From the NCBI GenBank assembly GCA_016208485.1, contig JACQXY010000061.1:14330-78329 (forward strand): 64,000 bases of DNA, given 5' to 3'. Positions 15,833-64,000 of this stretch are shown piece after piece. The position numbers were made by a program, and so were the translations under genes. Position 1 is the first letter of the stretch. The number at the start of each line of letters is the position of its first letter. A model generated the notes under the pieces. That model worked only from the letters and a program-made list of their open reading frames with translations. It did no database searches and had not been told where the DNA came from. The DNA comes from Acidobacteriota bacterium. Its GTDB lineage: Bacteria > Actinomycetota > AC-67.

Positions 15833-16164
15833 ACCTCTCGCCTCCCTTCGGCACTGTGTGGCTCGCCTCCGGATGCGCTTGAACTGGTCCCGCGCCCAAC
15901 CCCGCTCGCGCTCAGCCAGACTGTTGAAGCCAGACGTTACCAAGCCCCTAGGGTCAAGGCTACGCAGGATCGGACAATGTTCTGGCTCCCGCTTTGGCAG
16001 CTATTGACAACGGCGCCCTCCTCCGCTAGCCTGCCTAGGTCGTCTGGTTGCGTCCAGTGGTCGTTCCAGGGGCTGCCGTGGGTGTCGGTGGCCCCGTCGC
16101 CTGTGCCTCGGGCGCGTACCGAACACCCCGGAGCAATCCGACAACGCTGGCACGGTGTCCCGGG

Positions 16165-30925: not shown

Positions 30926-31165
30926 TACCGAAGCCTACGAGACGACCCCTCTACACCGCGATCTCCCCGCTCATCAGGCGCGGCAACGACAGGTTGCGGG
31001 CGGCGCGGAGCCGCGCATTCTGGAGTCGAAGGGCGTGAGCCTGAGAAAGTCTTCGGATAGACGGTCTCCTGGGTGCTCTGCGTATCGATTCCCCGCGCTC
31101 CCTCCTTCAGCGCGCGTGTTGTGCCGACCGGCGGATCTGAATGACATGGCCCCCGCGCGCTCGAG

Positions 31166-32191
31166 CTATCGCCGTCCCGCGCTCGGCGCGGCTTCGCCGG
31201 CGATCTCGGCGACGAGCATCTCAAGGACCAGCTCCGGCGGCTCGCCCTCCCCGCGCTCCCCGCCCTTGAGCGCGAGATCGGCGTCGGCGAGGAGGCGGAA
31301 CGCGCGGCGGATGTCCTCCGGCCCGAACGCGCGCGCCTGGCGGAACGCGCGCTTCACGGCGCCCTCCTTCACCTCCAGCTCCTTGGCGATCACCGCCGCC
31401 GGGCGCCGCTCGGAGTCGCGCACGAGCGCCACGGTGCGGAGTTGGCGCGCGAGCGCGGCGACCAGGCCGATCGGGTTCTCCCCCTGGCCGAGCAACGCGC
31501 CGAGGTGCCGGAGCGCAGCGGGGCGATCGCGACCGAGGACCGCATCCACGAACGTCCACGCCTGCGACTCGAGCCCCCGGAAGAGCCGCGTGACGGCCGC
31601 GATGTCGATGGCGCCGTCGGTCGAGGAGAGGAGCTGCTCGGCGGCCGACGCCAGCTCGCGAAGGTCGGTCCCGACCGCGTCCACGAGGGCCTGGGCGGCC
31701 TCCGGCGACACTCGACGGCCGGCCGCGCGCAGCCGCGCCGCGACCCAGCGCGGGACCTCCCAGGGCGGAGGAGCCTCGACCTCGATCACATCGGCGACCG
31801 CGCCGAGCGACTTCTTCAGGCGCGCCCCGCGCGCCGCGACGAGCGCGAGCCGTACGCCGGCCGGGGCGTCCGCCGCCCAGCGAGAGATCATCTCGAGCGC
31901 CGGGGCCTTGAGATCGTCCGCATCCGGAACGACGACGAGACGCCCGCCCCCGAAGAGCGAGGGAGTGTCGAGCCCGTAGGCGATCGCGGCGGGGTCGGAG
32001 GCGGGGAGCACCTCGGTCGCGAAGTCGTGCCGCTCGAGCTCCGCCCGCAGGTCCGCGAGAGCGGTCGAGGCGAGGAACTCGTCGCCCGACACGACGAGGG
32101 TCACCGGCGCGGCGCGGCGCGGCGCGGCGCTGCGCGGCGGCGCCCGGTGGCGCGCGGGCGGGTCGGCCGGGGGGCTGGTGCGAGGCATCAC
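31166..32191 (-). CDS. holA: DNA polymerase III subunit delta
   Basis: DNA_pol3_delta family (…LVVVPDADDLK…); N-terminus uncertain (possible GTG start at 32104; the first ~29 aa of the ORF are Pro/Arg-rich). Confidence 0.7.
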   Translation of the reverse strand: MMPRTSPPADPPARHRAPPRSAAPRRAAPVTLVVSGDEFLASTALADLRAELERHDFATEVLPASDPAAIAYGLDTPSLFGGGRLVVVPDADDLKAPALEMISRWAADAPAGVRLALVAARGARLKKSLGAVADVIEVEAPPPWEVPRWVAARLRAAGRRVSPEAAQALVDAVGTDLRELASAAEQLLSSTDGAIDIAAVTRLFRGLESQAWTFVDAVLGRDRPAALRHLGALLGQGENPIGLVAALARQLRTVALVRDSERRPAAVIAKELEVKEGAVKRAFRQARAFGPEDIRRAFRLLADADLALKGGERGEGEPPELVLEMLVAEIAGEAAPSAGRR

Positions 32192-32198
32192 CGAGATC

Positions 32199-34538: not shown

Positions 34539-35255
34539 CTAGACGGTGACGTAGGGCTCGAGCGAGGAGAACTTCTTCTCCCCGATCCCCTCGACCTTCA
34601 GCAGGTCGCGCACGCTCCGGAACGGGCCGTGCTGGGTCCGGTACTCCACGATCCGCTGGGCGAGCACGGGACCGACGCCGGGGAGCCCCTCGAGGTCGCG
34701 CTCGCTCGCGGCGTTGATGTTGAGCTTGCCGCCGCTCGCGGCACCCCCCGACCCACCGCCGTCCGCCGCCGCGCCGTTGGGCGGGACCTCCCCGCGCCGG
34801 GGCACGTAGATCCGCTCCCCGTCGGCGAGCGGGCGCGCGAGGTTGATCGAGTCGACATCGGCGCCGGGCGCCGGACCTCCGGCGCGGCGCACCGCGTCGA
34901 TGACGCGCGCGCCGGGAGCGAACTCGTAGACTCCCGGGCGCCTCACCGCTCCGGCGACGTGCACCACGATGCGCTCCCCGGCCGCGGCGGAGGCCGACGG
35001 CGCCGCGGAAGGCGCCACGGCGGGGACCGCAGCGGCCCCGAGCGCGGCCGGGCGAGCGCGCGCGAAGGCGACGAGCGCCCCCGAGAGGATGAGCCCGCCG
35101 AGGACCGCGAGCGCGACCGTCTCGCGAGGCCGGAACTCGAGCATGCGAGCCGCGCGAACCCACCACGGAACGGCGAGTCCGCTGCGGCCCCGGTCCTGTG
35201 CGCGCTCGCTCAGCATCTGGCCGGGGAAGGATCGATGGACGCGCGACGCTACCAC
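34539..35255 (-). CDS. comEA: competence protein ComEA (helix-hairpin-helix DNA-binding)
   Basis: C-terminus LNINAASERDLEGLPGVGPVLAQRIVEYRTQHGPFRSVRDLLKVEGIGEKKFSSL = tandem HhH; N-terminal TM; exact start uncertain (alternatives 35216, 35144). Confidence 0.7.
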   Translation of the reverse strand: MVASRVHRSFPGQMLSERAQDRGRSGLAVPWWVRAARMLEFRPRETVALAVLGGLILSGALVAFARARPAALGAAAVPAVAPSAAPSASAAAGERIVVHVAGAVRRPGVYEFAPGARVIDAVRRAGGPAPGADVDSINLARPLADGERIYVPRRGEVPPNGAAADGGGSGGAASGGKLNINAASERDLEGLPGVGPVLAQRIVEYRTQHGPFRSVRDLLKVEGIGEKKFSSLEPYVTV

Positions 35256-35324
35256 GCCGGGCGCGCCCGGCCACGTCCGGGAGAAGCGCGCGGAACGGCG
35301 CGAACGCGCCGGACGGACCGGCGC

Positions 35325-36284
35325 TCAGCTCGGCCCGCGCGCGCCCCGGTGCCGGCGCGTCGAGGCGTGGGCCTCGTCTCCGTGCGCCTCCCAGGGATCG
35401 AGGTGAACGTCCACCTGGGCGACGCCGGGCAGCTCGTGCAAGATCCGGTGGTGGACGGTCTCCGCCACCTCGTGCGCTCGCGCGAGCGGCAGGCGCCCGT
35501 CGACCGCCACCGTCAAGGTGACGTAGAGCGAGCGGCCCGCCCAGCGGGCCTGGCAGCGCCCGACCGAGGCGACGCTCGGAGTGCCTCCCGCCACAAGGCG
35601 GATGCGCTCGACGATCTCCGGGTCGACCGCGTCGAGCAGTCGAGCCAGGACCTGGCGGCCGGCGCCCCAGGCGATCGACCCGATCGCGAGCGTGATCACG
35701 AACCCGGCGATCGGGTCGGCGGCGCGAAACCCGAACCGCGCGCCCAGCAAACCGAGGAACGCCGCGACCGAGGCGAGCGCGTCGGTGCGCGCGTGCTGAC
35801 CGTCGGCCACGAGCGGCTCGCTCCCGATGCGGCGCCCGACCCGGATCTTGTACCGCGCGACCACCTCGTTGCCGATCCCTCCCACGAGCGCCGCGGCCAT
35901 CGCCCAGCCGACGAACGCGACCTCGTGCCCTCCGGTGAGCTTGCGGTAGGACTCGAGGGCGGCGTAGCCCGCGCTCGTCCAGATCACGAGCACCACGCCC
36001 ACTCCGGCGAGGTCCTCCAGGCGCTGGTAGCCGAACGTGTAGCGGTGATCCGCGGCCCGGCGCGCGGCCGTGAACGCCACCGCAAGGATCACCGTCGTGA
36101 CGATGTCCCCGATGTTGTCGAGGAGATCTGCAAGCAGGGCGGCGCTCCCGGAGATCGCCACGACGACGGCCTGGAAGACGGCCGTGAGCACGAGCGCAAC
36201 CGCGGAGATCCGGATCGCGCGCAGACCCTCGCGCGTGCCCTCCGGTCCGGCAACGGCAGCGACCCTGTGCGAATCGCCCGACAT
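35325..36284 (-). CDS. cation diffusion facilitator (CDF) family metal efflux transporter
   Basis: Cation_efflux TM domain plus C-terminal ZT_dimer; His-rich tail (HLDPWEAHGDEAH). Confidence 0.8.
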   Translation of the reverse strand: MSGDSHRVAAVAGPEGTREGLRAIRISAVALVLTAVFQAVVVAISGSAALLADLLDNIGDIVTTVILAVAFTAARRAADHRYTFGYQRLEDLAGVGVVLVIWTSAGYAALESYRKLTGGHEVAFVGWAMAAALVGGIGNEVVARYKIRVGRRIGSEPLVADGQHARTDALASVAAFLGLLGARFGFRAADPIAGFVITLAIGSIAWGAGRQVLARLLDAVDPEIVERIRLVAGGTPSVASVGRCQARWAGRSLYVTLTVAVDGRLPLARAHEVAETVHHRILHELPGVAQVDVHLDPWEAHGDEAHASTRRHRGARGPS

Positions 36285-36342
36285 GGTCCCCCCAGGCTAC
36301 GCCGCGCGCGCCCGGTCGCGAGCGCGCGCCGGACCCACCTCG

Positions 36343-38859
36343 CTACCGGACGACGATGTTGACGAGCCGCGGCGGGACGACGACCGTGCGCACGATCTGT
36401 CTCCCACCAAGGTGCGCTCCCACCTTGTCGGAGCCGAGGGCCAACTCCCTCATCCGCTCCTCGGAGACGGCGGCCGGCACCTCGATCCGGTCGCGCACCT
36501 TGCCGTTCACCTGGACCACCATCGTGTGCGTGTCCACGCGCACGAGCGCGGGGTCGACCTGGGGCCACCCGCCCCGGTGGATGCCGGGCTCCCGGCCGAG
36601 GCGGCGCCAGAGAGCCTCGCAGGCGAACGGCGCCATCGGGGCGAGCATGCGCAGGATCGCGTCGAGCGCCTCTCGCACGTCCTCGCCGGACGACCGCGGG
36701 GCGAGGTCGCCGCTCTCGTTCACGAGCGTCATGAGCTTCGCGATCGCGGTGTTGAAACGGAACCGCTCGTAGTCCTCGGTAACTCCGGCGACGGCGCGGT
36801 GGGTCGCCCGCCGCAAGTCGGAGGCGCCGGAGGGCGCGCCGGCCGACCCGGCGCGCGCGGCGTTGTCGAGCGCGAGGCGCCACACCCGCCCGAGCCACTT
36901 GTTCGACCCGGCGATCGAGCAGTCCGCCCAGTCGACGTCGTCCTCGACCGGCCCGGCGAAGAGAAGCGTGATCCGGAGCGCGTCGGCCCCCCAGCGCTCG
37001 ATGGTCGGCATCAGGTCCACGGCGTTGCCGCGCGACTTCGACATCGCCCCCTTCTCGCCGTTCAGGACCATCCCCTGGTTGAGGAGGTTCGGGAACGGCT
37101 CGGCGAAACCGACGAGCCCGAGATCGTGGAGCACCTTGGTGAAGAAGCGCGAGTAGAGCAGGTGAAGGATCGCGTGCTCGATCCCGCCGGTGTACTGGGC
37201 GACCGGCATCCAGCGCCGCACGGCCTCCGGGTCCACGGCCCGCTCCGGGTCGAGCGCGCAGTAGCGGAAGTAGTACCAGGACGAGTCCACGAACGTATCC
37301 ATCGTGTCGGTCTCGCGGCGCGCGGCGGCGCCGCATCGCGGGCAGGCCGCGCTCACCCACTCCTCCACCTTCGCGAGCGGGGACTCGCCGGTCTCGGCCG
37401 GCGTGAGGTCGTCCATCTCGGGGAGAAGCACCGGCAGCTCGCGCTCGGGGACCGGCACCTCGCCGCAATCCCGGCAGTGCACGATCGGGATCGGGCAGCC
37501 CCAGTAGCGCTGGCGCGAGATGAGCCAATCCCTCAGCCGGTAGCTCACCCTGCCCGTTCCGATGCCCTTCTCCTCGAGCCACCGCGTGACGGCGGCCTTG
37601 CCGCGCTCGGCCGGCGTTCCGTCGAACTCGCCCGAGCCGACCATCACCCCCGGGCCGTCGTAGGCCTCCGCCATCGTGTCGCCGTCGAGAGTCCCGTCCC
37701 CGGGGGCGATGACGACCCGGACCGGGATTCCCTCCTGGCGCGCGAACTCGAAGTCTCGCTGGTCGTGCGCCGGCACCGCCATGATCGCCCCGGTCCCGTA
37801 CTCCATGAGCACGTAGTCGGCGACCCAGATCGGGACCGGCTCGCCGTTCACCGGGTTGCGCGCGTGCGCCCCGAGGAACATCCCCTCCCGGCGGCGCCCG
37901 GTCGCGACGCGCTCGATCTCGGTCCGGCGGCGGACGCGCTCGAGGAAGGTCTCGAACTCCGCGCGCAGGCCCGCCCGCTCGGCGAGGCCGGCCGCCATGG
38001 GATGCTCCGGCGCGAGCACGAAGAAGGTCACGCCCCAGAGCGTGTCGGGGCGCGTGGTGAAGATCGGAACCTCCTCGCCCGTCTCGGCGACCGCGAAGGC
38101 GACTTCGGCTCCCTCGCTCCGGCCGATCCAGTTCCGCTGCATCGCGAGCACGCGGTCGCTCCAGCCGCCGAGCAGGGACATGTCCTCGAGGAGCCGGTCG
38201 GCGTAGGCGGTGATCCGGAGGAACCACTGCACCAGGTCGCGCTTGGTCACCACCGCGTCGCAGCGCTCGCAGAGGCCGCCCACCACCTGCTCGTTCGCGA
38301 GCACCGTGCGGCACGACGGGCACCAGTTGACCGCCGCGCCCTTGCGGTATGCGAGCCCACGCTCGAGGAACTTGAGGAATAGCCACTGCGTCCAGCGGTA
38401 GTACTCCGGATCGCAGGTGTTGAACGCGCGCGACCAGTCGAAGGACACGCCGAAGCGCTTGAAGGTCGCCGTCTGGGTCGCGATGTTGGAGTAGGTCCAC
38501 TCGCGCGGGTGGATCCCCCGCTTGATCGCGGCGTTCTCCGCCGGCAGCCCGAACGCGTCGAAGCCGATCGGGTGGAGCACGTCGTGGCCGCGCGCCCAAT
38601 GGAACCGCGCGATGGCATCCCCGATCGCCCACGCCTCGGCGTGGCCGACGTGCAGGTCCCCCGACGGGTACGGGAACATGTCGAGCGCGTACCTCGGGCT
38701 CTTCGGGGCCTCCGGCGCCGCGAAAGCGTTCTGGCGCGCCCACTCCTCGGAGAGAGGCGGCTCGACCGCGCCGGGGTCGTAGCGCTCGCGCTCGCCGGCC
38801 GCGCTCCGGCCCGAGGCCGAAGCGCGCGCGGATGCCTCCGATGCCGTCTCGCCCGTCAT
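36343..38859 (-). CDS. leuS: leucine--tRNA ligase
   Basis: …YALDMFPYPSGDLHVGHAE… HIGH motif, KMSKS (AMSKSRGN), 838 aa. Confidence 0.9.
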   Translation of the reverse strand: MTGETASEASARASASGRSAAGERERYDPGAVEPPLSEEWARQNAFAAPEAPKSPRYALDMFPYPSGDLHVGHAEAWAIGDAIARFHWARGHDVLHPIGFDAFGLPAENAAIKRGIHPREWTYSNIATQTATFKRFGVSFDWSRAFNTCDPEYYRWTQWLFLKFLERGLAYRKGAAVNWCPSCRTVLANEQVVGGLCERCDAVVTKRDLVQWFLRITAYADRLLEDMSLLGGWSDRVLAMQRNWIGRSEGAEVAFAVAETGEEVPIFTTRPDTLWGVTFFVLAPEHPMAAGLAERAGLRAEFETFLERVRRRTEIERVATGRRREGMFLGAHARNPVNGEPVPIWVADYVLMEYGTGAIMAVPAHDQRDFEFARQEGIPVRVVIAPGDGTLDGDTMAEAYDGPGVMVGSGEFDGTPAERGKAAVTRWLEEKGIGTGRVSYRLRDWLISRQRYWGCPIPIVHCRDCGEVPVPERELPVLLPEMDDLTPAETGESPLAKVEEWVSAACPRCGAAARRETDTMDTFVDSSWYYFRYCALDPERAVDPEAVRRWMPVAQYTGGIEHAILHLLYSRFFTKVLHDLGLVGFAEPFPNLLNQGMVLNGEKGAMSKSRGNAVDLMPTIERWGADALRITLLFAGPVEDDVDWADCSIAGSNKWLGRVWRLALDNAARAGSAGAPSGASDLRRATHRAVAGVTEDYERFRFNTAIAKLMTLVNESGDLAPRSSGEDVREALDAILRMLAPMAPFACEALWRRLGREPGIHRGGWPQVDPALVRVDTHTMVVQVNGKVRDRIEVPAAVSEERMRELALGSDKVGAHLGGRQIVRTVVVPPRLVNIVVR

Positions 38860-38954: not shown

Positions 38955-39027
38955 GGGGACGTAGCTCAGTTGGTAGAGCGCTTGCTCGGCAGGCAAGAGG
39001 TCGCCGGTTCGAATCCGGTCGTCTCCA
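38955..39027 (+). tRNA. tRNA-Ala (anticodon GGC)
   Basis: Cloverleaf folds by hand: acceptor GGGGACG/CGTCTCC with the Ala identity pair G3:U70, D-arm GCTC-AGTTGGTA-GAGC, anticodon arm CTTGC-TCGGCAG-GCAAG (anticodon GGC; unusual C33), T-arm GCCGG-TTCGAAT-CCGGT; CCA not encoded. Confidence 0.8.
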
Positions 39028-39163
39028 CTTGACCCCCGCTGTCCGCCCCTCCTCCGTTCTCGTACGGAGTGGCTATCGCCCGCGAGCGCAAACTCGTACC
39101 AGATTGATCACGGGCCATTATTGATCGCCGGCCGGTCACGGCGTCGGCCGGCTTCCGCGCTGA

Positions 39164-54926: not shown

Positions 54927-55165
54927 GCATGTTCACGGAGCGCACGCAGGTCTTGCTGAGCCCCGAGCAGCGGCGCGCCCTCGAGCGGCTGGCAAAGCGC
55001 CGCAAGGCCTCGGTCGGCGCCGTCGTCAGAGATGCCATCGAGGCCTACCTGACCCCGGGGGCCGGATCGAGATCGAAGGCGCTCGAGGCGCTTCTCGCGA
55101 TCGAGGCCCCCGTGGCGGACTGGGAGATCATGAAGGCCGAGATCGAGCAGGGAGCGCTCTCCTGA
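54923..55165 (+). CDS. vapB: ribbon-helix-helix antitoxin (VapB/CopG-like)
   Basis: M(CM)[43 protein letters not shown] fold signature; alternative ATG at 54929. Confidence 0.65.
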
Positions 55166-55596
55166 CGGTCTTCATCGACACCGCCCTGCCGATGTACGCG
55201 GCGGGCCGGGAGCACCCGTTGCGCGAGCCCTGCCGGGAGATCCTCGGACTCGCGGCGGCGGGGCGGCTTCCGGCCGTCACCTCCGCCGAGGTCGTCCGGG
55301 AGATCCTCCACCGGTTCGCGCACATCGGACGGCGCGACCTGGGGGCGGCGCTCGCCTCGGCGACCCTGGACCTCTTCGCTCCCGTCTTGCCGGTCACCCA
55401 CCGGATCGTGCAGCGCACGGCGGCCCTGGTCGAGCGATGCCCGCGCCTCTCCGCCCGCGATCTCGTGCACGTCGCCACGTGCCTGGAGGAAGGGATCGGG
55501 GCGATCGTGAGCCCCGACACGGGCTTCGACGAGGTCGGCGCGATCAGGCGGATCCCACCCGGGGACCGCAAGCTCCTGGCGCGCTACCTCCGGTAG
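55162..55596 (+). CDS. vapC: PIN-domain toxin VapC
   Basis: …[15 protein letters not shown]…VTSAEVVREILH…DLVHVATCLEEGIGAIVSPDTGFD with conserved PIN acidic residues; no canonical ATG/GTG/TTG upstream of the first conserved Asp so the start (CTG at 55162?) is uncertain. Confidence 0.6.
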   Translation: MTVFIDTALPMYAAGREHPLREPCREILGLAAAGRLPAVTSAEVVREILHRFAHIGRRDLGAALASATLDLFAPVLPVTHRIVQRTAALVERCPRLSARDLVHVATCLEEGIGAIVSPDTGFDEVGAIRRIPPGDRKLLARYLR

Positions 55597-55678
55597 AGTG
55601 TCCGAACCATCGCGTACATTGTTCTCCGGTCTATCTGCCGACTTGGGGTGCTTGATGGACGCTGCGGAGGGAAGCCGG

Positions 55679-58600
55679 ATGCGGTTCAGCCCCGGCCAGA
55701 TCCTCACCGGCCCTCTTTTCAACGAGCCGATGCGGGTCGAGAACGTGCAGGCCGGCGGCCAAGCAAGCTGGGTGGTGGGGCTCGTCGGCCTGCACTCCGA
55801 GCGCTTCCGCAAGGTGACCCTCAGCCCAGACGACGTCGAGCAACTGACGATCCTCGACGCGCGGCACTCATACGCGGGGGATGGACGGCTTCTGCGCCTC
55901 GGCCTCCAGGCATACGCCCTAGGAATCGCCTACGAATTCGACCCCTACTTTGGACTCTCTATCTCGCGCGTAGATCCGCTGCCGCACCAGCTCGAAGCCG
56001 TCTACGACTACCTGCTCAGGCTGGCGCGGGTGCGGTTCCTGCTCGCGGATGACGCCGGGGCCGGGAAGACCATCATGGCAGGGCTGCTGGTCCGAGAGCT
56101 CGAGCTCCGGGGTCTAGCCGAGCGCATCCTGATCGTCTGCCCGGCAAACCTTGCTTTCCAGTGGCAGCGCGAGCTGAAGGAGAAGTTCGATACCACGTTT
56201 CTCGTGATGAAGGGCCAAGACATCCGAGACCAGTTCGGCATGAACCAGTGGCTAGAACGGGACCGCGTCATCACGTCGCTCGACTTGGCGAAGCGCGAGG
56301 ACATCTTGCCGGGACTGCGCCAAGTCCACTGGGACCTTGTCATCGTGGACGAGGCCCATCGAATGTCGGCTGCCGACGAGTCGCACAAGAGCATGCGCTA
56401 CCGGCTCGGCGAGCTGCTGCGCGACGTCTCCGATCACATGCTCCTTCTCACGGCCACTCCGCACAAGGGCGACCCGCAGAACTTCAGTCTGTTTCTCCAG
56501 CTCCTCGACGCGGACGCCTACGCCGACGTGAAGTCGATCCGCGAGGCGATGGACCGCCGGCGGGCGCCCTTCTACTTGCGCCGCACCAAGGAAGCGATGG
56601 TCTACTTCCCCGAGCGGCGGCCGGACGGCTCCTGGGCTGCCGAGAAGATCTTCACCAAGCGAATCCCGCACACGGTGGACTTTCTGATCGACGGTGCGGA
56701 GTTCGATCTCTACCGCGAGGTGACGCGCTTTGTGAAGCGCGAGAGTGCCCGCGCGGCGGCCGAGGGCGAGGATCCCCGCGCTCGGGCGATCGGCTTCCTG
56801 ATGTCCCTCTACCAGCGCCGGCTCGCCTCGAGCACGTACGCGATGAAGCGATCACTCGAGAATCGCGCCCGACGCCTTGAAGACGGGCTCAAGCGCGCGC
56901 AGGACCTTGCCCGCCAAGCGCCGCCGGATATCCCCGATCCGGACGAGCTGGACGAGATGGAGGAAGGTGAGAGGGAGCAACTCGAGGCCATGATCGAGGC
57001 GATCACTCTCGCGGGAAACGCCGACCAAGTGCGCCAGGAGGTCCAGGAGCTGCGGCGGCTCGCCGCGCAGGCCCAAGCCGTGGTGGACGCGGGAGTAGAG
57101 GCCAAGCTTTCGGAGCTGAAGGATCTGCTCCAAGAAGAGGGCTTCTTCGATCATCCTGACCAGCGCTTGCTCCTGTTCACCGAGTTCAAGGACACCCTCG
57201 ACTACCTCGTGGAGCGCCTGGAGTCCTGGGGCTTCCGGGTCGGCTGCATCCACGGGGGCATGAAACCTGGCTCGCGCAACGAGCCCGGCACGCGCTTGTA
57301 CGCCGAGCAGCAGTTCCGTGAGGGCGAGATCCAGATCCTCGTCGCGACCGAGGCCGCGGGCGAGGGGATCAACCTGCAGGTCTGCAACATCCTCTTCAAC
57401 TACGACATCCCGTGGAACCCGAACCGTCTCGAGCAACGGATGGGCCGCATCCACCGTTACGGCCAGCGCAAGGATTGCTTGATCTTCAACTTCGTGGCGA
57501 CGAACACGATCGAAGGCCGCGTCCTCCAGCGGCTGCTCGAGAAACTCCAGGAGATCCGCGACGCGCTCGACGACGATGCGGTTTTCAACGTGGTCGGCGA
57601 GATTCTGCCGGCCGCCCACGTCGAACGCGTGCTGCGCGACTACTACGCCGGACGCCTCGGAGACGCCGACCTCGAGGAGCGCCTGCTCCGCGACGTGGAT
57701 GAGGGGCAATTCCGGGCCATCTGCCAGAACGCCTTAGAGGGACTGGCGAGCAAGAGGCTCAACCTGGAGATGCTGATCGAGCGTCGCGCGCGGGCACAAG
57801 AGCAACGCGTTGTTCCTGAGACCATCGCCCGATTCATGCGTGAAGCATCCGAGTTCGTGCCGCTCAGCCTGAGGATGGTTCCCAGCCTTGCCCACACCTT
57901 CGAGCCTGCCCGAACGCCCTCCGTTCTACGGCGCCACGAGAAGGACCCGGACTGGAAACTCCCGGCTCTCGCCGACCGCTATCCGCGCTGCTCCACCGAC
58001 CGGGAGACGGCAGAGACCCAGAAGCTGGAGTGGGTCACGCCCGGCCATCCACTATTCGAGGCGATCCGGCGCCACACGCACGCACGGGCGCTGGACGCCC
58101 TCGGCCAAGGTGCGACGTTCCATTCGCTCCAGCATGAACGTCCGGCGCGCATCGACTTCTATCGCGCCCGGGCAGTGGACGGACTCGGACAGGTCGTCCA
58201 TGAGCGGCTCTTCGCCGTGGAGATCGACGAGGACTCGGAGCCTCGGCTCCAAGAGCCCAGCTTGCTCGGGAACTTCGCGCCCGCAATCGCGCCGGCCGAG
58301 ATGCCTGCGGTGGCCGCCCTTCCAGAAGCGACGGCCTGGCTCCACGAACAGGCGCTGGCGCCGTTCCTCGACGAGACGCGGCAGGACCGCATGTCCGAGG
58401 TTGAGCGGATCGCCGCGCACGTCGAGCTGTCGCTGACGGAATTGCTCCAGCGTGCCGACGAGGAGATCGGCCGTTCGGCCTCAGACGTCGAGCAGAAGCT
58501 CGCCGGTGCCGAAGGGCGGCTCGCCATGGCGGAAACGCGTCACGCGGAACTGCTCACGCGACGCGATCGACGCCGGACCGATCTTGAGCACCAGCGTTCG

Positions 58601-59101
58601 CTGACCCTCCAAGCGGTTGAGCGGCTCGCGAGCGTCCTCATCTTGCCGCACCCCGAACGCGAGGCGCCCGATGTGCGACGCCTCAGGCCGAACTTCGAAA
58701 CCGAGGCCACCGCCATGCGCGTGGTGATGGAACATGAGCGGGCGCAGGGTCGTCAGGTCTACGACGTCTCCAAGAAGAACCTGGGCTACGACATCACGAG
58801 CCTCGACCTTGCCTCCGGTGAGTTGCGCCTCATCGAGGTCAAGGGCCTCGGCGCGGCGACCGGCACGATCCTGCTGACGCCCAACGAGCGGCGCGTCGCA
58901 GAGGATCGACCCGACTGCTTCTGGCTCTACGTCGTCACCGACTGCGACAATGCTCCGCGACTCCAGGAGCCGATCCGCGATCCGGCGCGGCTCGACTGGA
59001 ACGAAGTGCGAAAGGTGGCGCACTACTACCTCTCGGTGAACGCGATGACGAAACCCATGCAGGTGCGCGAAGAGCCGTTGCCGTACGGGAAGGCCCCCTG
59101 A
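55679..59101 (+). CDS. SNF2-family helicase (DEXDc + HELICc) with long coiled-coil linker and C-terminal DUF3883 restriction-endonuclease-like domain
   Basis: ATG with SD GGAGGGAAG (alternative upstream GTG 55598/ATG 55655); motifs LLADDAGAGKT (I), DLVIVDEAHR (II), LLLTATPHKG (III), …ILVATEAAGEGINLQ…QRMGRIHRYGQ (V/VI); C-terminus …RLIEVKGLGAATGTILLTPNERRVAEDRPDCFWLYVVTDC…. Confidence 0.75.
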   Translation: MRFSPGQILTGPLFNEPMRVENVQAGGQASWVVGLVGLHSERFRKVTLSPDDVEQLTILDARHSYAGDGRLLRLGLQAYALGIAYEFDPYFGLSISRVDPLPHQLEAVYDYLLRLARVRFLLADDAGAGKTIMAGLLVRELELRGLAERILIVCPANLAFQWQRELKEKFDTTFLVMKGQDIRDQFGMNQWLERDRVITSLDLAKREDILPGLRQVHWDLVIVDEAHRMSAADESHKSMRYRLGELLRDVSDHMLLLTATPHKGDPQNFSLFLQLLDADAYADVKSIREAMDRRRAPFYLRRTKEAMVYFPERRPDGSWAAEKIFTKRIPHTVDFLIDGAEFDLYREVTRFVKRESARAAAEGEDPRARAIGFLMSLYQRRLASSTYAMKRSLENRARRLEDGLKRAQDLARQAPPDIPDPDELDEMEEGEREQLEAMIEAITLAGNADQVRQEVQELRRLAAQAQAVVDAGVEAKLSELKDLLQEEGFFDHPDQRLLLFTEFKDTLDYLVERLESWGFRVGCIHGGMKPGSRNEPGTRLYAEQQFREGEIQILVATEAAGEGINLQVCNILFNYDIPWNPNRLEQRMGRIHRYGQRKDCLIFNFVATNTIEGRVLQRLLEKLQEIRDALDDDAVFNVVGEILPAAHVERVLRDYYAGRLGDADLEERLLRDVDEGQFRAICQNALEGLASKRLNLEMLIERRARAQEQRVVPETIARFMREASEFVPLSLRMVPSLAHTFEPARTPSVLRRHEKDPDWKLPALADRYPRCSTDRETAETQKLEWVTPGHPLFEAIRRHTHARALDALGQGATFHSLQHERPARIDFYRARAVDGLGQVVHERLFAVEIDEDSEPRLQEPSLLGNFAPAIAPAEMPAVAALPEATAWLHEQALAPFLDETRQDRMSEVERIAAHVELSLTELLQRADEEIGRSASDVEQKLAGAEGRLAMAETRHAELLTRRDRRRTDLEHQRSLTLQAVERLASVLILPHPEREAPDVRRLRPNFETEATAMRVVMEHERAQGRQVYDVSKKNLGYDITSLDLASGELRLIEVKGLGAATGTILLTPNERRVAEDRPDCFWLYVVTDCDNAPRLQEPIRDPARLDWNEVRKVAHYYLSVNAMTKPMQVREEPLPYGKAP

Positions 59102-59117
59102 TGGCGGAACGGATCCG

Positions 59118-60602
59118 ATGAGCGAGCGCATCTTCGTGAGCAGCGTGCAGAAGGAACTGGAGGCCGAGCGACGGGCCGTGCGGGCCTTCGTTCGCGGGGA
59201 TGCGCTGCTGCGGCGGTTCTTCGATGTCTTTCTCTTCGAAGACCTCGCGGCATCCGATCGGCGGGCGGACGATGTGTACCTCGACGAGGTGGGACGCTGC
59301 GCCGTCTACCTCGGACTTCTCGGCGACGAGTACGGCAGCGAGGACGCGGCGGGGGCATCGCCGACTGAGCGCGAGTTCGACCACGCCACAGCCCTGGGCA
59401 AGACGCGCCTCGTCTTCGTCAGGGGCGTTGACCACGACGGCCGGCATCCGAAGATGCGCGCTCTGGCCGCCAAGGCCGGAGCGCAGCTTATCCGCAGGCG
59501 TTTCAGCGGGATTTCAGACCTCACCGCGGCCCTCTACGCCAGCCTCGTCGAGCATCTGGAGCGGACGGGCAGGCTTAGCACGCGGCCCTTCGACGCTGCG
59601 GCCTGTCCGGACGCCACGTTGGAGGACGTCTCGCCCCAGAAGATGGAATGGTTCATCGGCATCGCCCGCCGCGAGCGGCAGTATCCTCTCCGCGAGGCTA
59701 CACCGCCGGTCGAGGCTCTGGCCCACCTGAACCTGCTCGACGCAGGCCAGCCGACCCGCGCAGCCGTCCTCCTATTCGGGCGGGAGCCGCAACGCTTTCT
59801 CCTCAGCTCCGAGATCAAGTGCCTGCACTTCCACGGCACCGAGGTGCGCAAGCCCATCCCGTCGTACCAGGTGTACAACGGAACCGTGTTCGAGTTGGTG
59901 GACCAGGCGGCGGACTTCGTCATGTCCAAGATCGCCCGGGCCGTCGGCACCCGCGCCCACGGCCCGGAGGCACCTGTCGAGTACGAGCTGCCCCGAGAGG
60001 CCGTGGTCGAGGCCATCGTGAACGCCGTCGCACACCGCGACTACACGAGCAACGCCAGTGCGCAGGTGATGCTCTTCGCGGACCGGCTGGAGGTCTGGAA
60101 CCCCGGAGAACTCCCCCCCACCCTGACGCTGCCGCAGTTGCGCATACCGCATCCCTCCATTCCCCACAACCCGCTCATCAGCGAGCCGCTCTTCCTTGCC
60201 CGGTACATCGAACGAGCCGGCACCGGCACACTGGACATGATCGCCCGGTGCCGGGAAATGGGCTTGCCCGAACCGGAGTTCCGGCAGGACGGTGGACAGT
60301 TCGTCATGACCTTGTGGCGCGACTGGCTCACGGAGGAAGTTCTGGCCTCCCTGGCACTGAATGAACGCCAGGAGAAGGCGGTCGGCTTCATCCGGCGAGA
60401 AGGCCGCCTGACCAACCTCCAGTACCAGGAGATCACGGGCGCGAGCCGGGCCACCGCGAAGCGGGACCTCGAGGAGCTTATGGGCAAGGGTGTGCTAGTC
60501 CGCATGGGCACCGGGCGCGCTGCCCATTATCTGGTTGCGAAGAAACGGCTCAAGAAAGGCTCAAATGGCTCACCGGAGGGTGCGGACGGAAATGGCTCAT
60601 AA
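59118..60602 (+). CDS. fusion protein DUF4062 + Schlafen/AlbA_2 divergent-ATPase + HATPase_c_4 + C-terminal wHTH (RecG-C-terminal-like 'transcriptional regulator' family)
   Basis: N-terminus MSERIFVSSVQKELEAERRAVRAFVRG matches DUF4062 start consensus; middle …AAVLLFGREPQRFLLSSEIKCLHFHG… (AlbA_2); …PLISEPLFLARYIERAGTGTLDMIARCREMGLPEPEF (HATPase_c_4); C-terminal HTH; TAA stop. Confidence 0.6.
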   Translation: MSERIFVSSVQKELEAERRAVRAFVRGDALLRRFFDVFLFEDLAASDRRADDVYLDEVGRCAVYLGLLGDEYGSEDAAGASPTEREFDHATALGKTRLVFVRGVDHDGRHPKMRALAAKAGAQLIRRRFSGISDLTAALYASLVEHLERTGRLSTRPFDAAACPDATLEDVSPQKMEWFIGIARRERQYPLREATPPVEALAHLNLLDAGQPTRAAVLLFGREPQRFLLSSEIKCLHFHGTEVRKPIPSYQVYNGTVFELVDQAADFVMSKIARAVGTRAHGPEAPVEYELPREAVVEAIVNAVAHRDYTSNASAQVMLFADRLEVWNPGELPPTLTLPQLRIPHPSIPHNPLISEPLFLARYIERAGTGTLDMIARCREMGLPEPEFRQDGGQFVMTLWRDWLTEEVLASLALNERQEKAVGFIRREGRLTNLQYQEITGASRATAKRDLEELMGKGVLVRMGTGRAAHYLVAKKRLKKGSNGSPEGADGNGS

Positions 60603-60662: not shown

Positions 60663-60797
60663 ATGATCCCCAAGGAGTGCAAGCGCCTGGCTGAGGTGGA
60701 CTTCCCGATTGCCGAGGCGCCGCGGCATGCGGCGTGGGAGAAGTCGATCCGGCAGGGACATCCGAGCGCACCTGCCTCGAGAACTCAGACCCCATGA
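60663..60797 (+). pseudogene. duplicated 5' fragment (~35 codons) of the DUF1156 methyltransferase gene; short ORF whose stop overlaps the DUF3644 start
   Basis: 60663-60767 is ~89% identical at DNA level to 61867-61971 (protein MIPKECKRLAEVDFPIAEAPRHAAWEKSIRQGHPS vs MIPKECKRLAEVDFPIAEVSRHAAREKSIRHGHPS); homology ends ~nt 105 and the ORF terminates with TGA overlapping ATG 60794. Confidence 0.5.
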
Positions 60798-61870
60798 GAG
60801 GGCTGCCCTACGACGTCAAGGCGCTCGTCGAGAAGGCGAGGGAGACCGCCCTGCTCGCAGTGGAGACCTACAACCGCCCCACGGCGAGCTTCCGGTCAGG
60901 CGCGTACGTAGTCCTGATGATCATCGCTTGGACGTCGCTCTTTCACGCGATGTTCCTTCGCAAGGGAATCAAGCCGTACTGCCGAAAGCCCGGCTCAAGA
61001 CGGTACGAGCGGATCGATGGTGAGCCTCGGCGCTGGGAGCTCGGAGAGTGCCTGCGGCAACACTACAAGGCGAGTAACCCTGCCACCCGGCGGAATCTCG
61101 AGTTCTTCATTGGGCTCCGCAACAAGATCGAGCATCGTTCGCTTGCGCAGATCGACCCAGAAGTCTTCGGCGAATGCCAAGCGATGTTGCTGAACTTCGA
61201 GTCCCTGCTCGTTTCGGAGTTTGGTGATCGGTACGCGATTCGTGGCGGTCTCACGTTCGCCTTGCAGTTCTCACGGGTCGTTCCGACGAGTTCATCGGCG
61301 CCGGCCGCCAATACTGCTGGTAGAGCGTTCAAGGCGATCAAGCAATACGTGGACGCCTTCCGGTCAAGTCTGAGCGCGGACGTGCAGAACGACCTGGCCT
61401 ACAGCTTCAAGGTCTTCCTCGTTCCGAAGATCGGCAATCACGCGAGCAAGGACTCGGTTGCCGTGGAATGGATCAAATACCATCCCTCGAAGCCTGAGGA
61501 GATGAGGCACTACGAGAAGGTAGTGGCGATGATCAAGCCCAAGGAGGTGCAGATCGCGAATCTGGGCCGCCTAAAGCCGACGCAAGTCGCGCGGCAAGTT
61601 GCGGTCAAGCTCGGCAGGCGGTTCACGAATTACGACCACAAGCTTTGCTACGAGCATTTCACGATCCGGCCGCCAGGTGGGGCACCCGATCCGTCGGCAT
61701 GCAACCCTCAGTTCTGTGTCTACGACGATCTCCACAAGGACTACTGCTACACGCCGCAGTGGGTTGACTTCCTTGGGGAGAGACTGGCTGATCCTGCGCT
61801 CTACGCGAACATCATCACGAGAAGGAAGGCCACCGCGAAACCCATTGAAACCAGGAGCGCAACCGCATGA
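60794..61870 (+). CDS. DUF3644-family (HEPN-like, MAE_28990/MAE_18760-type) protein
   Basis: MRGLPYDVKALVEKARETALLAVETYNRPTASFRSGAYVVLMIIAWTSLFHAMFLRKGIKPYCR… matches my recollection of the DUF3644 N-terminal consensus; lower GC (~58%); ATGA overlaps at both ends. Confidence 0.55.
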   Translation: MRGLPYDVKALVEKARETALLAVETYNRPTASFRSGAYVVLMIIAWTSLFHAMFLRKGIKPYCRKPGSRRYERIDGEPRRWELGECLRQHYKASNPATRRNLEFFIGLRNKIEHRSLAQIDPEVFGECQAMLLNFESLLVSEFGDRYAIRGGLTFALQFSRVVPTSSSAPAANTAGRAFKAIKQYVDAFRSSLSADVQNDLAYSFKVFLVPKIGNHASKDSVAVEWIKYHPSKPEEMRHYEKVVAMIKPKEVQIANLGRLKPTQVARQVAVKLGRRFTNYDHKLCYEHFTIRPPGGAPDPSACNPQFCVYDDLHKDYCYTPQWVDFLGERLADPALYANIITRRKATAKPIETRSATA

Positions 61871-64000
61871 TCCCGAAGGAGTGCAAGCGCCTTGCCGAGG
61901 TGGACTTCCCGATCGCCGAGGTGTCGCGGCACGCGGCGCGGGAGAAGTCGATCCGGCACGGGCACCCGAGCACGCTGCACCTGTGGTGGGCCCGGCGGCC
62001 GCTGGCGTCGAGCCGCGCGGTGCTGCTGGGGCTACTCTGGCCGGATCCATGCGATCCGCTGTGCCCGCCAGAGTTCAAGGCGAAGGCTCGAGAGTTGCTG
62101 CCGCGGGTGCAGGGCGGGGGCGCGCCAGGCCCAACTAACAATGATCTACGGCAATCGCTGCTCAAGTTTATCGGTGCGTTTGCGAACTGGGACCTTGCCG
62201 CGAACGGCGTTTACCTGGAGGTCAGCCGCGCCCTGGTGAAGGCGGCGCACGGCGAGGAGCCACCGCTGGTCGTGGATCCGTTCGCGGGGGGCCGATCGAT
62301 CCCGTTGGAGGCTCTGCGGCTTGGCTGCGATGCCTTCGCGAGCGACTTGAACCCCGTCGCCTGCCTGATCCTCAAGGTGATGCTCGAGGACATCCCGCGC
62401 CACGGGCCGAAGCTCGCCGAGGAGCTGCGCCGCGTCGGGACGGAGATCAAACGGCAGGCGGAGAAGGAGTTGGCGGATCTCTACCCCAAGGATCCGGACG
62501 GCGCGACGCCGATCGCCTACCTCTGGGCGCGGACCGTGCGCTGCGAGTCGCCGAACTGCGGCGCGGAGATCCCGCTCGTGCGCTCGTTCTGGCTCTGCAA
62601 GAAGGCGAACCGCCGGCGGGCGCTCAGGCACCGCGTCGTGCGGCCCGCGGGCGAGCCGCCGCGCGTCGAGTTCGAGATAGTCGAGCCGAAGGCTGAGGAG
62701 GAGGTGCCCGGCGGGACGGTGACGCGCGCGAAGGCCACGTGCGTCGCGTGCGGCGCGGTGCTCCCGCCCGAGCGCGTGCGGCCGCAGCTCGCGGCACAGC
62801 GCGGCGGGGCCGACGTCGTCTTCGGCGCCGAGGGCCTACGCACGGCCGGGGCGAGGATGCTGGCCGTTGTGACGCTCCGGCCCGACGAGCAGGGACGGCA
62901 CTATCGGCTGTCAACCGAGCGCGACTACGAGGGCACCCGCAACGCGCAGGAGCGGCTCGCGGCGATCCTCGGCGCGTGGGAGCGTGACGGAAAGATGGGC
63001 CTCCGCCCGGTGCCGGATGAGCCGCTGCCGCCGATCGGCACGCTCGGCTTTCGCGTGCAGCGGTACGGCATGCTCCAGTGGGGCGACCTCTTCACGGCGC
63101 GGCAGAAGACTGCGCTGGTCACGTTGTCGGTGCGGATGGCCCGAGAGAACGGAGACGTCATTGAGGCAATGGCGTCTTCTCTTTCGAGACTTGCGGACAA
63201 GAACGCATCACTCGCAGTCTGGAATCAGATCGGCGAGAAGATTGAGCACGTCTTCGGGCGTCAGGCACTCCCAATCGTCTGGGACTTCGCAGAGGTGCCC
63301 ATATTTTCGAACTCTACCGGTAATTTCGGCAGCGGTGTCGATCTCGTCCGAAAAGTGTTAGAGGCTTGGCCTGGCTCACTTGCAGGGCAAGTTCAACTCG
63401 CTGACGCTACCGAGCACCCACTCCCCGACCAGACCGCAACCGTCTGGTTCACCGACCCGCCCTATTACGATGCGGTCCCGTACGCCGACCTCTCGGACTT
63501 CTTCTTCGTCTGGCTGAAGCGCGCGCTACCGGGACGAGCAGTCTTGCGCGATCCGTTCGATCCGGCCAACCCGCTTTCCCCCAAACGGCGCGAAGCCGTG
63601 CAGGACGAGACGAAACGAGACAACGGTCGGTCGAAGGACCGAGCGTGGTTCGAGGAGACGATGGCCCGTGCCTTCGCCGAAGGCCGACGGGTACTGCGAG
63701 AGGACGGCGTGGGCTCCGTGGTTTTTGCCCACAAGACGACGGAAGGCTGGGAAGCGCTCCTCTCCGGGATGATTCGGGGCGGCTGGACGATCACCGGCTC
63801 GTGGCCCATCGCCACGGAGCGCCCCGGGCGACTGCGCGCACAGGAGTCTGCCGCCCTCGCCACCAGCGTCCACCTCATCTGCCGCCCCCGCCCTGTGGAT
63901 GCAGGCGTCGGTGACTGGGCCGACGTTCTGCGCGAGCTGCCGAACCGCGTCGGCGACTGGATGGAGCGCCTGCAGGGCGAAGGTATTCGCGGCGCCGACC
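61867..64000 (+). CDS. DUF1156-domain N6-adenine DNA methyltransferase with Zn-ribbon (COG1743 family), 3' end beyond window
   Basis: Open frame from ATG 61867 to the window end; N-terminal DUF1156 (…HGHPSTLHLWWARRP…VDPFAGGRSIPLEALRLGCDAFASDLNP = SAM-binding motif I), CxxC…CxxC Zn-ribbon (CESPNCG…CVACG), catalytic motif IV DPPY (VWFTDPPYYD). Confidence 0.75.
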   Translation, partial: MIPKECKRLAEVDFPIAEVSRHAAREKSIRHGHPSTLHLWWARRPLASSRAVLLGLLWPDPCDPLCPPEFKAKARELLPRVQGGGAPGPTNNDLRQSLLKFIGAFANWDLAANGVYLEVSRALVKAAHGEEPPLVVDPFAGGRSIPLEALRLGCDAFASDLNPVACLILKVMLEDIPRHGPKLAEELRRVGTEIKRQAEKELADLYPKDPDGATPIAYLWARTVRCESPNCGAEIPLVRSFWLCKKANRRRALRHRVVRPAGEPPRVEFEIVEPKAEEEVPGGTVTRAKATCVACGAVLPPERVRPQLAAQRGGADVVFGAEGLRTAGARMLAVVTLRPDEQGRHYRLSTERDYEGTRNAQERLAAILGAWERDGKMGLRPVPDEPLPPIGTLGFRVQRYGMLQWGDLFTARQKTALVTLSVRMARENGDVIEAMASSLSRLADKNASLAVWNQIGEKIEHVFGRQALPIVWDFAEVPIFSNSTGNFGSGVDLVRKVLEAWPGSLAGQVQLADATEHPLPDQTATVWFTDPPYYDAVPYADLSDFFFVWLKRALPGRAVLRDPFDPANPLSPKRREAVQDETKRDNGRSKDRAWFEETMARAFAEGRRVLREDGVGSVVFAHKTTEGWEALLSGMIRGGWTITGSWPIATERPGRLRAQESAALATSVHLICRPRPVDAGVGDWADVLRELPNRVGDWMERLQGEGIRGAD

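Follow-up and report, generated by a model that had tools for sequence, protein, structure and literature searches.

The helicase-methylase-ATPase (Hma) systems were defined in 2021 (Payne 2021, PMC8565338) and were renamed in 2026 as the Type-1 (DUF499-centred) BREX-related system (NAR 2026, PMC12839542). HmaA of Halomonas meridiana alone, expressed from its native promoter, lowers T4 propagation in E. coli; the defence is lost when motif VI is mutated and also in a quadruple mutant of the nuclease site, and its isolated C-terminal domain nicks supercoiled plasmid in the presence of Mn2+ (Liu 2024, PMC11232893). The Hma-type helicases were described as having a single TUDOR domain and, behind the helicase, an inactive REase together with an alpha+beta domain; the Tudor–Snf2–alpha+beta layout is common with RapA (NAR 2026, PMC12839542).

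Related helicases are found in several other settings. DrmD, the SNF2 helicase of class 1 DISARM, is without the NOV_C nuclease. BrxHII of type 3 BREX partners, like HmaA, with an N6-methyltransferase and an ORC-like ATPase, but is without an active C-terminal REase, and BREX uses PglZ and BrxC/DUF6079, not DUF499. ZorD of Zorya type I follows the same concept as HmaA, joining a Snf2 motor to a PD-(D/E)xK-type nuclease for defence, though its Mrr-like nuclease is of a different family from NOV_C. RapA, the RNA-polymerase recycling ATPase of E. coli (PDB 6BOG, 4S20), has a housekeeping role, two Tudor domains and no nuclease.

We compared with these systems a gene from an Acidobacteria MAG that lies in a 64-kb stretch of DNA, hereafter the window; positions are counted along this stretch, and all the features described are on its + strand. 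The ORF at 55598..59101 is real, with 1,167 codons, GTG as the first codon and a coding-type composition (GC3 0.83). The preliminary description suspected that translation starts downstream, at 55679, and the evidence agreed with it. A Shine-Dalgarno sequence, GGAGG (55666-55670), precedes the ATG (55679-55681) by 8 nt (whole element 55666..55681), and this ATG was chosen by two independent gene calls, those of a Logan contig and of the NCBI protein P0001, which has 1,140 aa and is 100% identical to the protein of the window. The profile offsets (position 5 of the DrmD profile corresponds to residue 33) are also in agreement, and the N-termini of homologues fall within about 4 residues of this start. 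The 55598 start is an upstream in-frame extension. From Pfam, PADLOC and the gene calls, hmaA occupies 55679..59101, stop codon included, and encodes a 1,140-aa SNF2-family helicase with a predicted PD-(D/E)xK nuclease.

The PADLOC HmaA model (PDLC00659) matched the protein end to end with 578 bits and E 8.5e-174, residues 69-1114 aligning with positions 45-1131 of the 1176 in the profile. The second-best PADLOC model, DrmD, matched the helicase part only. We concluded that the gene is, with high confidence, hmaA, the effector of an Hma system, situated in a small defence island. The order of domains (SNF2-rel_dom, Helicase_C, NOV_C) is the same as in HmaA of H. meridiana Hm43005 and in the PADLOC HmaA family.

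The complete set of SNF2 motifs I–VI, which had been proposed earlier, could be located. Pfam SNF2-rel_dom matched residues 146-320 (E 1.3e-18) and Helicase_C residues 503-622 (E 1.5e-24), both in the numbering of the 1,167-aa ORF. In the 1,140-aa numbering, lobe 1 (56033..56557) has motif I, GAGKT, at 127-131 (56057-56071), motif II, DEAH, at 224-227 (56348-56359) and motif III, TATP, at 258-261 (56450-56461). Lobe 2 (57104..57463) has motif IV, LLFTEF, at 498-503, motif V, GEGINLQ, at 561-567 and motif VI, QRMGRIHRYGQ, at 586-596; the last one (57434-57466) extends 3 nt past the end of the Pfam domain. All the motifs are invariant across homologues of 33-90% identity, the distant plasmid-borne ones included.

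We also modelled the full-length protein with AF2, using 40 homologues of 85-90% identity. The mean pLDDT was 40.9, a low value because the alignment, drawn from the closest 120 relatives, was too shallow, and the model is usable only for residues 1-60 and for secondary-structure trends. The N-terminal domain (residues 1-60; 55679..55858) is the best part of the model (block pLDDT 73-80), with five predicted strands between residues 8 and 59. A Pfam search of this domain gave no match; the predicted beta-rich fold agrees with the one TUDOR domain reported for the Hma helicase family.

Behind the helicase lobes, the region 57467..58702 is one that HmaA has in common with DrmD and BrxHII. The preliminary description had taken residues 770-1,000 as a long charged or coiled-coil stretch. 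This holds for one part, as a long two-helix hairpin is predicted, at low confidence, at 882-987 (58322-58639; 1,140-aa numbering), preceded by alpha+beta elements at 731-858. Most of the stretch is instead a conserved post-helicase module of the DrmD/BrxHII/RapA type, because the DrmD and BrxHII profiles continue to align through residues ~976-999.

The restriction-endonuclease-like DUF3883 module claimed for the C-terminus was recovered with a significant profile match. Pfam NOV_C/DUF3883 (PF13020; 58703..58963) covered residues 1036-1122 (1,167-aa numbering) with E 3.8e-21; when the domain was searched alone, the value was 1.1e-22, and NOV_C was the sole Pfam match at E ≤ 10. The D…ExK…E nuclease signature is intact and consists of D1038 (within 58787-58801), E1053-V-K1055 (within 58832-58846) and E1070 (within 58877-58888), in 1,140-aa numbering. 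D1038, E1053 and K1055 are invariant in 40 close homologues as well as in 7 distant ones (33-44% identity); among the latter, a Thermus sequence is the only one with another residue, Q, at the position of E1070. The Halomonas protein has this signature in common with ours, with a K-to-E spacing of 15 in both, whereas the D-to-E spacing is 15 here and 20 in Halomonas. Searching the domain against the representative library gave 1,946 matches, and the 150 listed were mostly fragments of the same clade that brought in hardly any new diversity. The last 140 residues, modelled by AF2 from 21 homologues, had an alpha-beta-beta-beta-alpha-beta order, with a mean pLDDT of 58.7. Foldseek of this low-confidence model against the PDB returned chance-level matches only (best E 1.9), and a profile built from 11 NOV_C domains found no match among PDB sequences at E ≤ 10. 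The PD-(D/E)xK fold is a predicted one; its basis is the Pfam clan of the domain, for which we follow Liu 2024 (PMC11232893).

The genes downstream of hmaA fit an Hma operon. Two embedded genes separate it from hmaB, all of them on the same strand. The hmaB gene begins at 61867 and is cut by the window end (61867..64000), so that its first 711 codons are seen; they encode a DUF1156 N6-type DNA methyltransferase (Pfam DUF1156 E 1.5e-21; PADLOC HmaB E 8.5e-107) with the motifs DPFAGG at 137-142 and DPPY at 530-533. A homologue of HmaC was not found elsewhere in the window, which stops inside hmaB, and hmaC, encoding an ORC/Cdc6-like DUF499 ATPase, is expected just beyond its end. When the sequence past the window end was sought, exact matching of HmaA and of the 494-aa protein encoded next to it led only to a Logan contig of 6.4 kb, and an exact 40-mer scan of metagenome contigs gave no match. 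In related loci the order of the genes is well preserved: hmaB was present in 46 of the 54 loci having at least 9 kb downstream, hmaC followed hmaB in 22 of the 25 with room for it, and cargo genes were placed between hmaA and hmaB in all but two of the 46 loci where hmaB was in reach (44/46). PADLOC identified both hmaB and hmaC in two of these loci, L072 and L007, whose HmaB proteins are 72-75% identical to that of the window. The annotated plasmid homologues also have the helicase–DUF1156–DUF499 order, with embedded genes. Scanning the locus for promoters and terminators revealed nothing exceeding the shuffled expectation.

The hmaB partner and the defence genes embedded between hmaA and hmaB are as in the Halomonas and PADLOC Hma loci, but the cargo is different: Septu in Halomonas, and here a Schlafen-like gene and a DUF3644 HEPN gene. 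By profile matches, the first of these (59118..60602; 494 aa) combines DUF4062, a Schlafen-like region, HATPase_c_4 and a wHTH. Its core, residues ~158-402, was found again in 16 of 46 hmaA–hmaB slots, and the class to which it belongs was described in NAR 2026 (PMC12839542). The second (60794..61870; 358 aa) matched DUF3644 (E 1.6e-51) and PADLOC PDC-S19 (E 2.6e-131), has the HEPN motif R109-NKIE-H114 and a Cys/His-rich C-terminal part, and resembles the validated HEC-08 (Payne 2024 preprint). The locus is a further case of 'embedding', its two cargo genes being of classes with known links to defence.

As a side observation, possibly new, remnants of hma gene ends border the cassettes. A 105-nt direct repeat of the hmaB 5' end, 90% identical between 60663-60767 and 61867-61971, flanks the DUF3644 cassette. 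The upstream copy forms a remnant ORF of 44 codons (60663..60797) that reproduces hmaB codons 1-35, and its stop codon overlaps the DUF3644 start codon (ATGA), both in the window and in L007. The remnant/DUF3644 junction in L007, which comes from an unrelated MAG, is identical. When cargo slots of relatives were searched, extra same-strand copies were detected for the hmaA 3' end in 10 of the 81 sequences with a hit, for the hmaB 5' end in 14 of 65 and for the hmaB 3' end in 4 of 50. Extra copies of the hmaA 5' end (0/81) or of an internal stretch of hmaC (0/34) were not seen in the relatives. This pattern of gene ends could be accounted for by Campbell-type or homology-facilitated illegitimate recombination, with cassettes being stacked and scars left behind. 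We tentatively propose, as a possibility somewhat short of even, that the conserved hma gene ends serve as arms for recombination, through which the embedded defence cassettes would turn over in an integron-like manner; the remnant leader ORF may drive translational coupling to the cassette gene. We found no mention of such remnants in the Hma papers examined.

Directly upstream of hmaA there is a VapBC-like pair (54929..55596), composed of a ribbon-helix-helix-like ORF of 78 aa (54929-55165) and a PIN-domain ORF (E 2.3e-11) that ends at 55596 and whose start is uncertain. This pair is absent upstream of hmaA in related loci; it probably belongs to this island and not to Hma itself. The clade to which our HmaA belongs is unusually conserved, with 85-90% amino-acid identity across phyla, compared to only about 33-44% with the plasmid homologues. 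Recent horizontal transfer was rejected as the cause of the 88% cross-phylum identity, since identity drops to only about 60% at third codon positions and each hmaA follows its own host in GC content. Cassette turnover through the gene ends might be a reason for the strong conservation of HmaA.

We then weighed other identities for the protein. Among the families that the preliminary description had named for comparison (DrmD, ZorD and Hma), HmaA fitted best. It is highly improbable that the protein is the SNF2 helicase of another modification-based system, DrmD of DISARM or BrxHII of type 3 BREX, even though both gave strong partial PADLOC matches. DrmD (E 1.8e-123) has a homologous Snf2 core and post-helicase region, and with the NCBIfam DrmD model the alignment spans 129-999; BrxHII (E 1.3e-91 over 96-976) is built alike as far as the post-helicase alpha+beta region. 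However, the NCBIfam DrmD equivalog models fell short of their cut-offs (355 bits for a threshold of 610, and 217 for one of 950), neither helicase has the NOV_C nuclease, and the HmaA model outscores them and covers the whole protein. The neighbours also argue against both systems: the DISARM partners DrmA, DrmB, DrmC and DrmE were not found among them, and when the PIN ORF, the Schlafen-like gene, the HEPN gene and the DUF1156 methylase were tested for the type 3 BREX set (PglZ, BrxC, BrxA, BrxF, PglXI), PglZ, BrxC and BrxA were not found and PglXI was marginal (E 6.6e-4). For ZorD, the match was confined to the Helicase_C lobe (E 1.9e-20; 51.6 bits against a cut-off of 1,500), and zorABC or other Zor genes were not found among the neighbours. 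The DpdE equivalog model scored below its cut-off.

By sequence, the solved structure nearest to the helicase lobes is that of RapA (E 3.6e-37), and BrxHII, the Type-3 BREX counterpart, parallels the RapA architecture (NAR 2026, PMC12839542). Still, a housekeeping, RNA-polymerase-associated Swi2/Snf2 ATPase of the RapA type is an extremely remote reading of this gene. The RapA equivalog score was 166.7 bits against a cut-off of 576, the C-terminal nuclease signature is intact, and the distribution of HmaA is patchy and cross-phylum. The gene also sits in an island of lower GC content (0.66, as against 0.71 upstream) alongside toxin-antitoxin, HEPN and methylase genes.

With the gene read as hmaA, an inferred mode of action can be sketched. 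The Snf2 motor would translocate on double-stranded DNA and thereby bring the C-terminal nuclease to the invader DNA, which this nuclease would nick or cut. HmaB, a DPPY amino-methyltransferase, may mark host DNA as self, and HmaC, the ORC/Cdc6-like DUF499 ATPase, may sense or assemble the complex. The two embedded genes, Schlafen-like and HEPN, would be co-transcribed with the Hma system as second-layer effectors of the RNase type.

HmaA could also be a self-contained helicase-nickase, abortive-infection-like and independent of HmaB methylation and of HmaC, with the operon serving mainly as a landing pad for defence genes. Several results of Liu 2024 (PMC11232893) speak for this: hmaA alone protects E. 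coli from T4, the protection fails at MOI 10, T4 sensitivity is unchanged after growth in HmaB-overexpressing hosts, and hmaB and hmaC are absent from 14.7% and 19.3%, respectively, of 1,079 hmaA neighbourhoods. We nevertheless regard this alternative as unlikely, since synteny of the three genes is well conserved among the related loci counted above, HmaB keeps its catalytic DPPY, and the system parallels type 3 BREX with its ATPase, N6-methyltransferase and helicase (NAR 2026, PMC12839542); moreover, an unrestrained nicking translocase would be expected to be toxic if self-marking were lacking. The same data bear on the earlier proposal that the helicase–nuclease arrangement belongs to modification-dependent defence. 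The defence part is supported by the HmaA profile and the downstream hmaB. Dependence on modification is conjectural: Hma is methylase-associated and RM-like, and HmaB had no effect on T4 sensitivity in Liu 2024 (PMC11232893).

The HmaA described here is genuine, yet it is an unremarkable representative of a known family, whose arrangement has already been published and experimentally characterised. With this Acidobacteria MAG, one more Hma locus joins a family of thousands that has a detection model, an experimental test and a recent evolutionary reclassification, and the locus yields a clean annotation of the true start, the catalytic residues and the operon partners. If a systematic survey agrees, the gene-end remnants could explain mechanistically how defence genes get embedded in Hma operons.

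The open reading frame at 55598–59101 on the forward strand is present as listed in the preliminary description, and its GC3 of 0.83 gives the codon-position pattern of a true gene in a window of ~70% GC. The suggestion that translation begins downstream of the ORF-track start also held. A GGAGG at 55666–55670 lies 8 nt 5′ of an ATG at 55679, which is the start both in the Logan gene call and in the 100% identical NCBI protein P0001 (1,140 aa); the N-termini of homologues are offset from it by only a few residues. Numbering from this ATG, we located all six motifs of the SNF2 set that had been claimed: GAGKT (I, 127–131), DEAH (II, 224–227), TATP (III, 258–261), LLFTEF (IV, 498–503), GEGINLQ (V, 561–567) and QRMGRIHRYGQ (VI, 586–596). 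In the 1,167-aa numbering, Pfam places SNF2-rel_dom at 146–320 and Helicase_C at 503–622.

We compared the protein with the DrmD, ZorD and Hma families, and observed that HmaA, the helicase-nuclease of the Hma anti-phage system, was the best match and the only one running end to end (PADLOC, E = 8.5e-174; residues 69–1114 against profile positions 45–1131 of 1176); DrmD models matched the helicase half only. The NCBIfam equivalogs all scored below their cut-offs: 355 bits against 610 for DrmD, 52 against 1,500 for ZorD, 167 against 576 for RapA and 172 against 500 for DpdE. There is no solved structure of any HmaA, and RapA is the closest solved chain by sequence. These results support the reading of a defence-type SNF2 helicase-nuclease.

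The C-terminal DUF3883/restriction-endonuclease-like module was borne out by a NOV_C/DUF3883 match (Pfam, E = 3.8e-21; 1036–1122 in the 1,167-aa numbering) together with a classical PD-(D/E)xK signature, GYD(1038)ITS…LIE(1053)VK(1055)G…TPNE(1070). When the domain alone was searched against Pfam, NOV_C (E = 1.1e-22) was the single family matched. D1038, E1053 and K1055 are unchanged in 40 close homologues and in all seven homologues at 33–74% identity, which include plasmid genes of cyanobacteria, Rhodococcus, Thermus and Fervidibacter; of these seven, all but the Thermus protein, which has Q there, also keep E1070. The AF2 model of the domain has the right order of PD-(D/E)xK elements at a mean pLDDT of only 58.7, Foldseek with this model returned chance-level matches only, and a profile of the NOV_C domain had zero matches among PDB sequences. 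The PD-(D/E)xK fold is thus assigned from the sequence signature and from the literature, where NOV_C is placed in clan CL0236 (Liu et al. 2024, PMC11232893, citing Steczkiewicz 2012).

The charged/coiled-coil region described at about 770–1000 stood in part. The DrmD (NCBIfam, aligned 129–999) and BrxHII (PADLOC, aligned 96–976) profiles run through it, so this stretch is the post-helicase module that helicases of this group conserve. For the module, an inactive REase followed by an alpha+beta domain has been described (NAR 2026, PMC12839542), the whole helicase being laid out as TUDOR, Snf2, inactive REase, alpha+beta domain, active REase. The AF2 model of the full protein is poor, with a mean pLDDT of 40.9; its secondary structure suggests mixed alpha/beta elements at 731–858 and a single long helical hairpin at 882–987. 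Its best part, a five-stranded beta domain at residues 1–60, would be compatible with the published TUDOR domain.

At E ≤ 1e-20, HmaA matches at least 7,984 relatives, of which the best 120 are 85–90% identical despite labels of different phyla. The same range was seen when window 55679–59098 was compared with the 80 related loci fetched (L002–L081), from MAGs labelled Acidobacteria, Betaproteobacteria, Rokubacteria, NC10, Dormibacteraeota and Eisenbacteria. The relatives share 88% amino-acid, 82% nucleotide and only ~60% third-codon-position identity, and the GC of hmaA tracks each host. The conservation therefore reflects purifying selection, unusually strong for a defence gene, and not recent transfer. 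The N-terminal part of HmaB is less conserved (52–78%).

In 54 of the loci the sequence extends 9 kb or more past hmaA, and 46 of these have the DUF1156 methylase gene hmaB, separated from hmaA by cargo in 44 of the 46 (median gap 3.35 kb). The DUF499 ATPase gene hmaC lay 3′ of hmaB in 22 of the 25 with room; PADLOC confirmed both genes in L072 and L007. RefSeq plasmids are annotated in the order helicase-related protein, (PIN genes), DUF1156, (HsdR-N, Uma2), DUF499. The cargo is diverse and defence-like, with TIR-like, HEPN, Abi_2-like and YhcG-like ORFs judged by sequence inspection only, and in L007 a PDC-S06 ATPase (PADLOC).

In the window, hmaB runs from 61867 to the window end (+), its first 711 codons matching HmaB at E = 8.5e-107 and encoding DPFAGG and DPPY; the window ends inside it and does not include hmaC. 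Two genes are embedded before it. The first (59118–60602, +) encodes a 494-aa protein with DUF4062 (4–90), a Schlafen-like region, HATPase_c_4 (314–399) and a wHTH, weakly similar to pAgo-associated PADLOC models. Its core (residues ~158–402) recurs in 16 of the 46 hmaA–hmaB slots; among fetched loci, similarity reaching into the DUF4062 part was seen in L023 only (first 44 residues, at the contig end). In at least 1,017 taxa, Schlafen–minimal-kinase–wHTH genes have been noted close to Type-1 BREX-related loci (NAR 2026). The second (60794–61870, +) encodes a 358-aa DUF3644 HEPN protein with RNKIEH at 109–114 and a Cys/His-rich C-terminus (PADLOC PDC-S19, E = 2.6e-131); HEC-08, which has been validated by experiment, is of this class. 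L007 has the same gene (84% identity) immediately 5′ of hmaB.

Directly 5′ of hmaA is a VapBC-like pair (54929–55596, +), a 78-aa ORF that looks ribbon-helix-helix-like on inspection and a PIN-domain ORF having no canonical start codon that retains the first conserved acidic residue (FIDT). Ordinary metabolic genes precede it on the opposite strand, and hmaA has a GC of 0.66, against 0.71 upstream. The sole tRNA gene of the window, tRNA-Ala (GGC) at 38955–39028 (+), lies 16 kb from the Hma island and so does not suggest itself as its integration site. A block at 31000–37000, spanning several minus-strand ORFs (31166–36284), has very high GC (0.74–0.78 against ~0.69 elsewhere) and positive AT skew of up to 0.29.

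We also observed a 105-nt direct repeat, 60663–60767, with 90% identity to the hmaB 5′ end at 61867–61971. This copy of hmaB codons 1–35 forms a 44-codon ORF (60663–60797) just 5′ of the DUF3644 gene, whose start codon overlaps the ORF stop (ATGA). L007 shares this junction (15890–16003), the copy there being decayed. Across the relatives, extra partial same-strand copies lie within cargo slots. Of the sequences with a match, 10 of 81 have one of the hmaA 3′ end, 14 of 65 one of the hmaB 5′ end and 4 of 50 one of the hmaB 3′ end; there were none of the hmaA 5′ end (0/81) or an internal hmaC stretch (0/34). Examples are L002 15237–15449, L048 15239–15631 and 16590–16988, L021 15160–15324, L064 16394–16600 and L013 13248–13448. 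These copies look like scars of recombination-mediated cassette stacking or exchange via conserved hma gene ends. In the Spirochaetia MAG loci L029, L046 and L048 (~14600–17000), the full hmaA is followed by one or two further copies of its final ~140 codons, the part for the NOV_C nuclease domain; these may be remnants or independent nuclease ORFs.

Hma was first defined by Payne et al. 2021 (PMC8565338) and has been renamed a Type-1 DUF499-centred BREX-related system (NAR 2026). Embedded genes occur in 62.7% of 1,485 Hma systems, and several were validated, including HEC-08, which needs its Rx4-6H histidine (Payne et al. 2024). The HmaA of the window has intact catalytic motifs and shares an operon with hmaB; the need for the helicase and nuclease sites, and nicking, were shown for the Halomonas homologue. 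There, a motif VI mutant lost defence, motif I T136A gained it, the D1084/E1104/K1106/E1121 quadruple mutant was dead, and the isolated C-terminal region nicked supercoiled plasmid with Mn2+ (Liu et al. 2024). In the inferred mechanism, an ATP-driven Snf2 translocase would carry a PD-(D/E)xK nickase onto foreign DNA, while HmaB would mark self DNA through N6-adenine methylation, HmaC may sense or organise the complex, and the embedded Schlafen-like and HEPN genes could be back-up RNases. The main alternative is that HmaA works alone, in an abortive-infection-like manner: Halomonas HmaA alone lowered T4 propagation ~100-fold, and HmaB overexpression left T4 sensitivity unchanged (Liu et al. 2024).

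The hmaA of the window belongs, as an ordinary member, to a family that has already been described and tested by experiment. The Hma papers searched contain no mention of hma gene-end remnants, and this pattern of cassette scars may be the sole element of the locus that is new.
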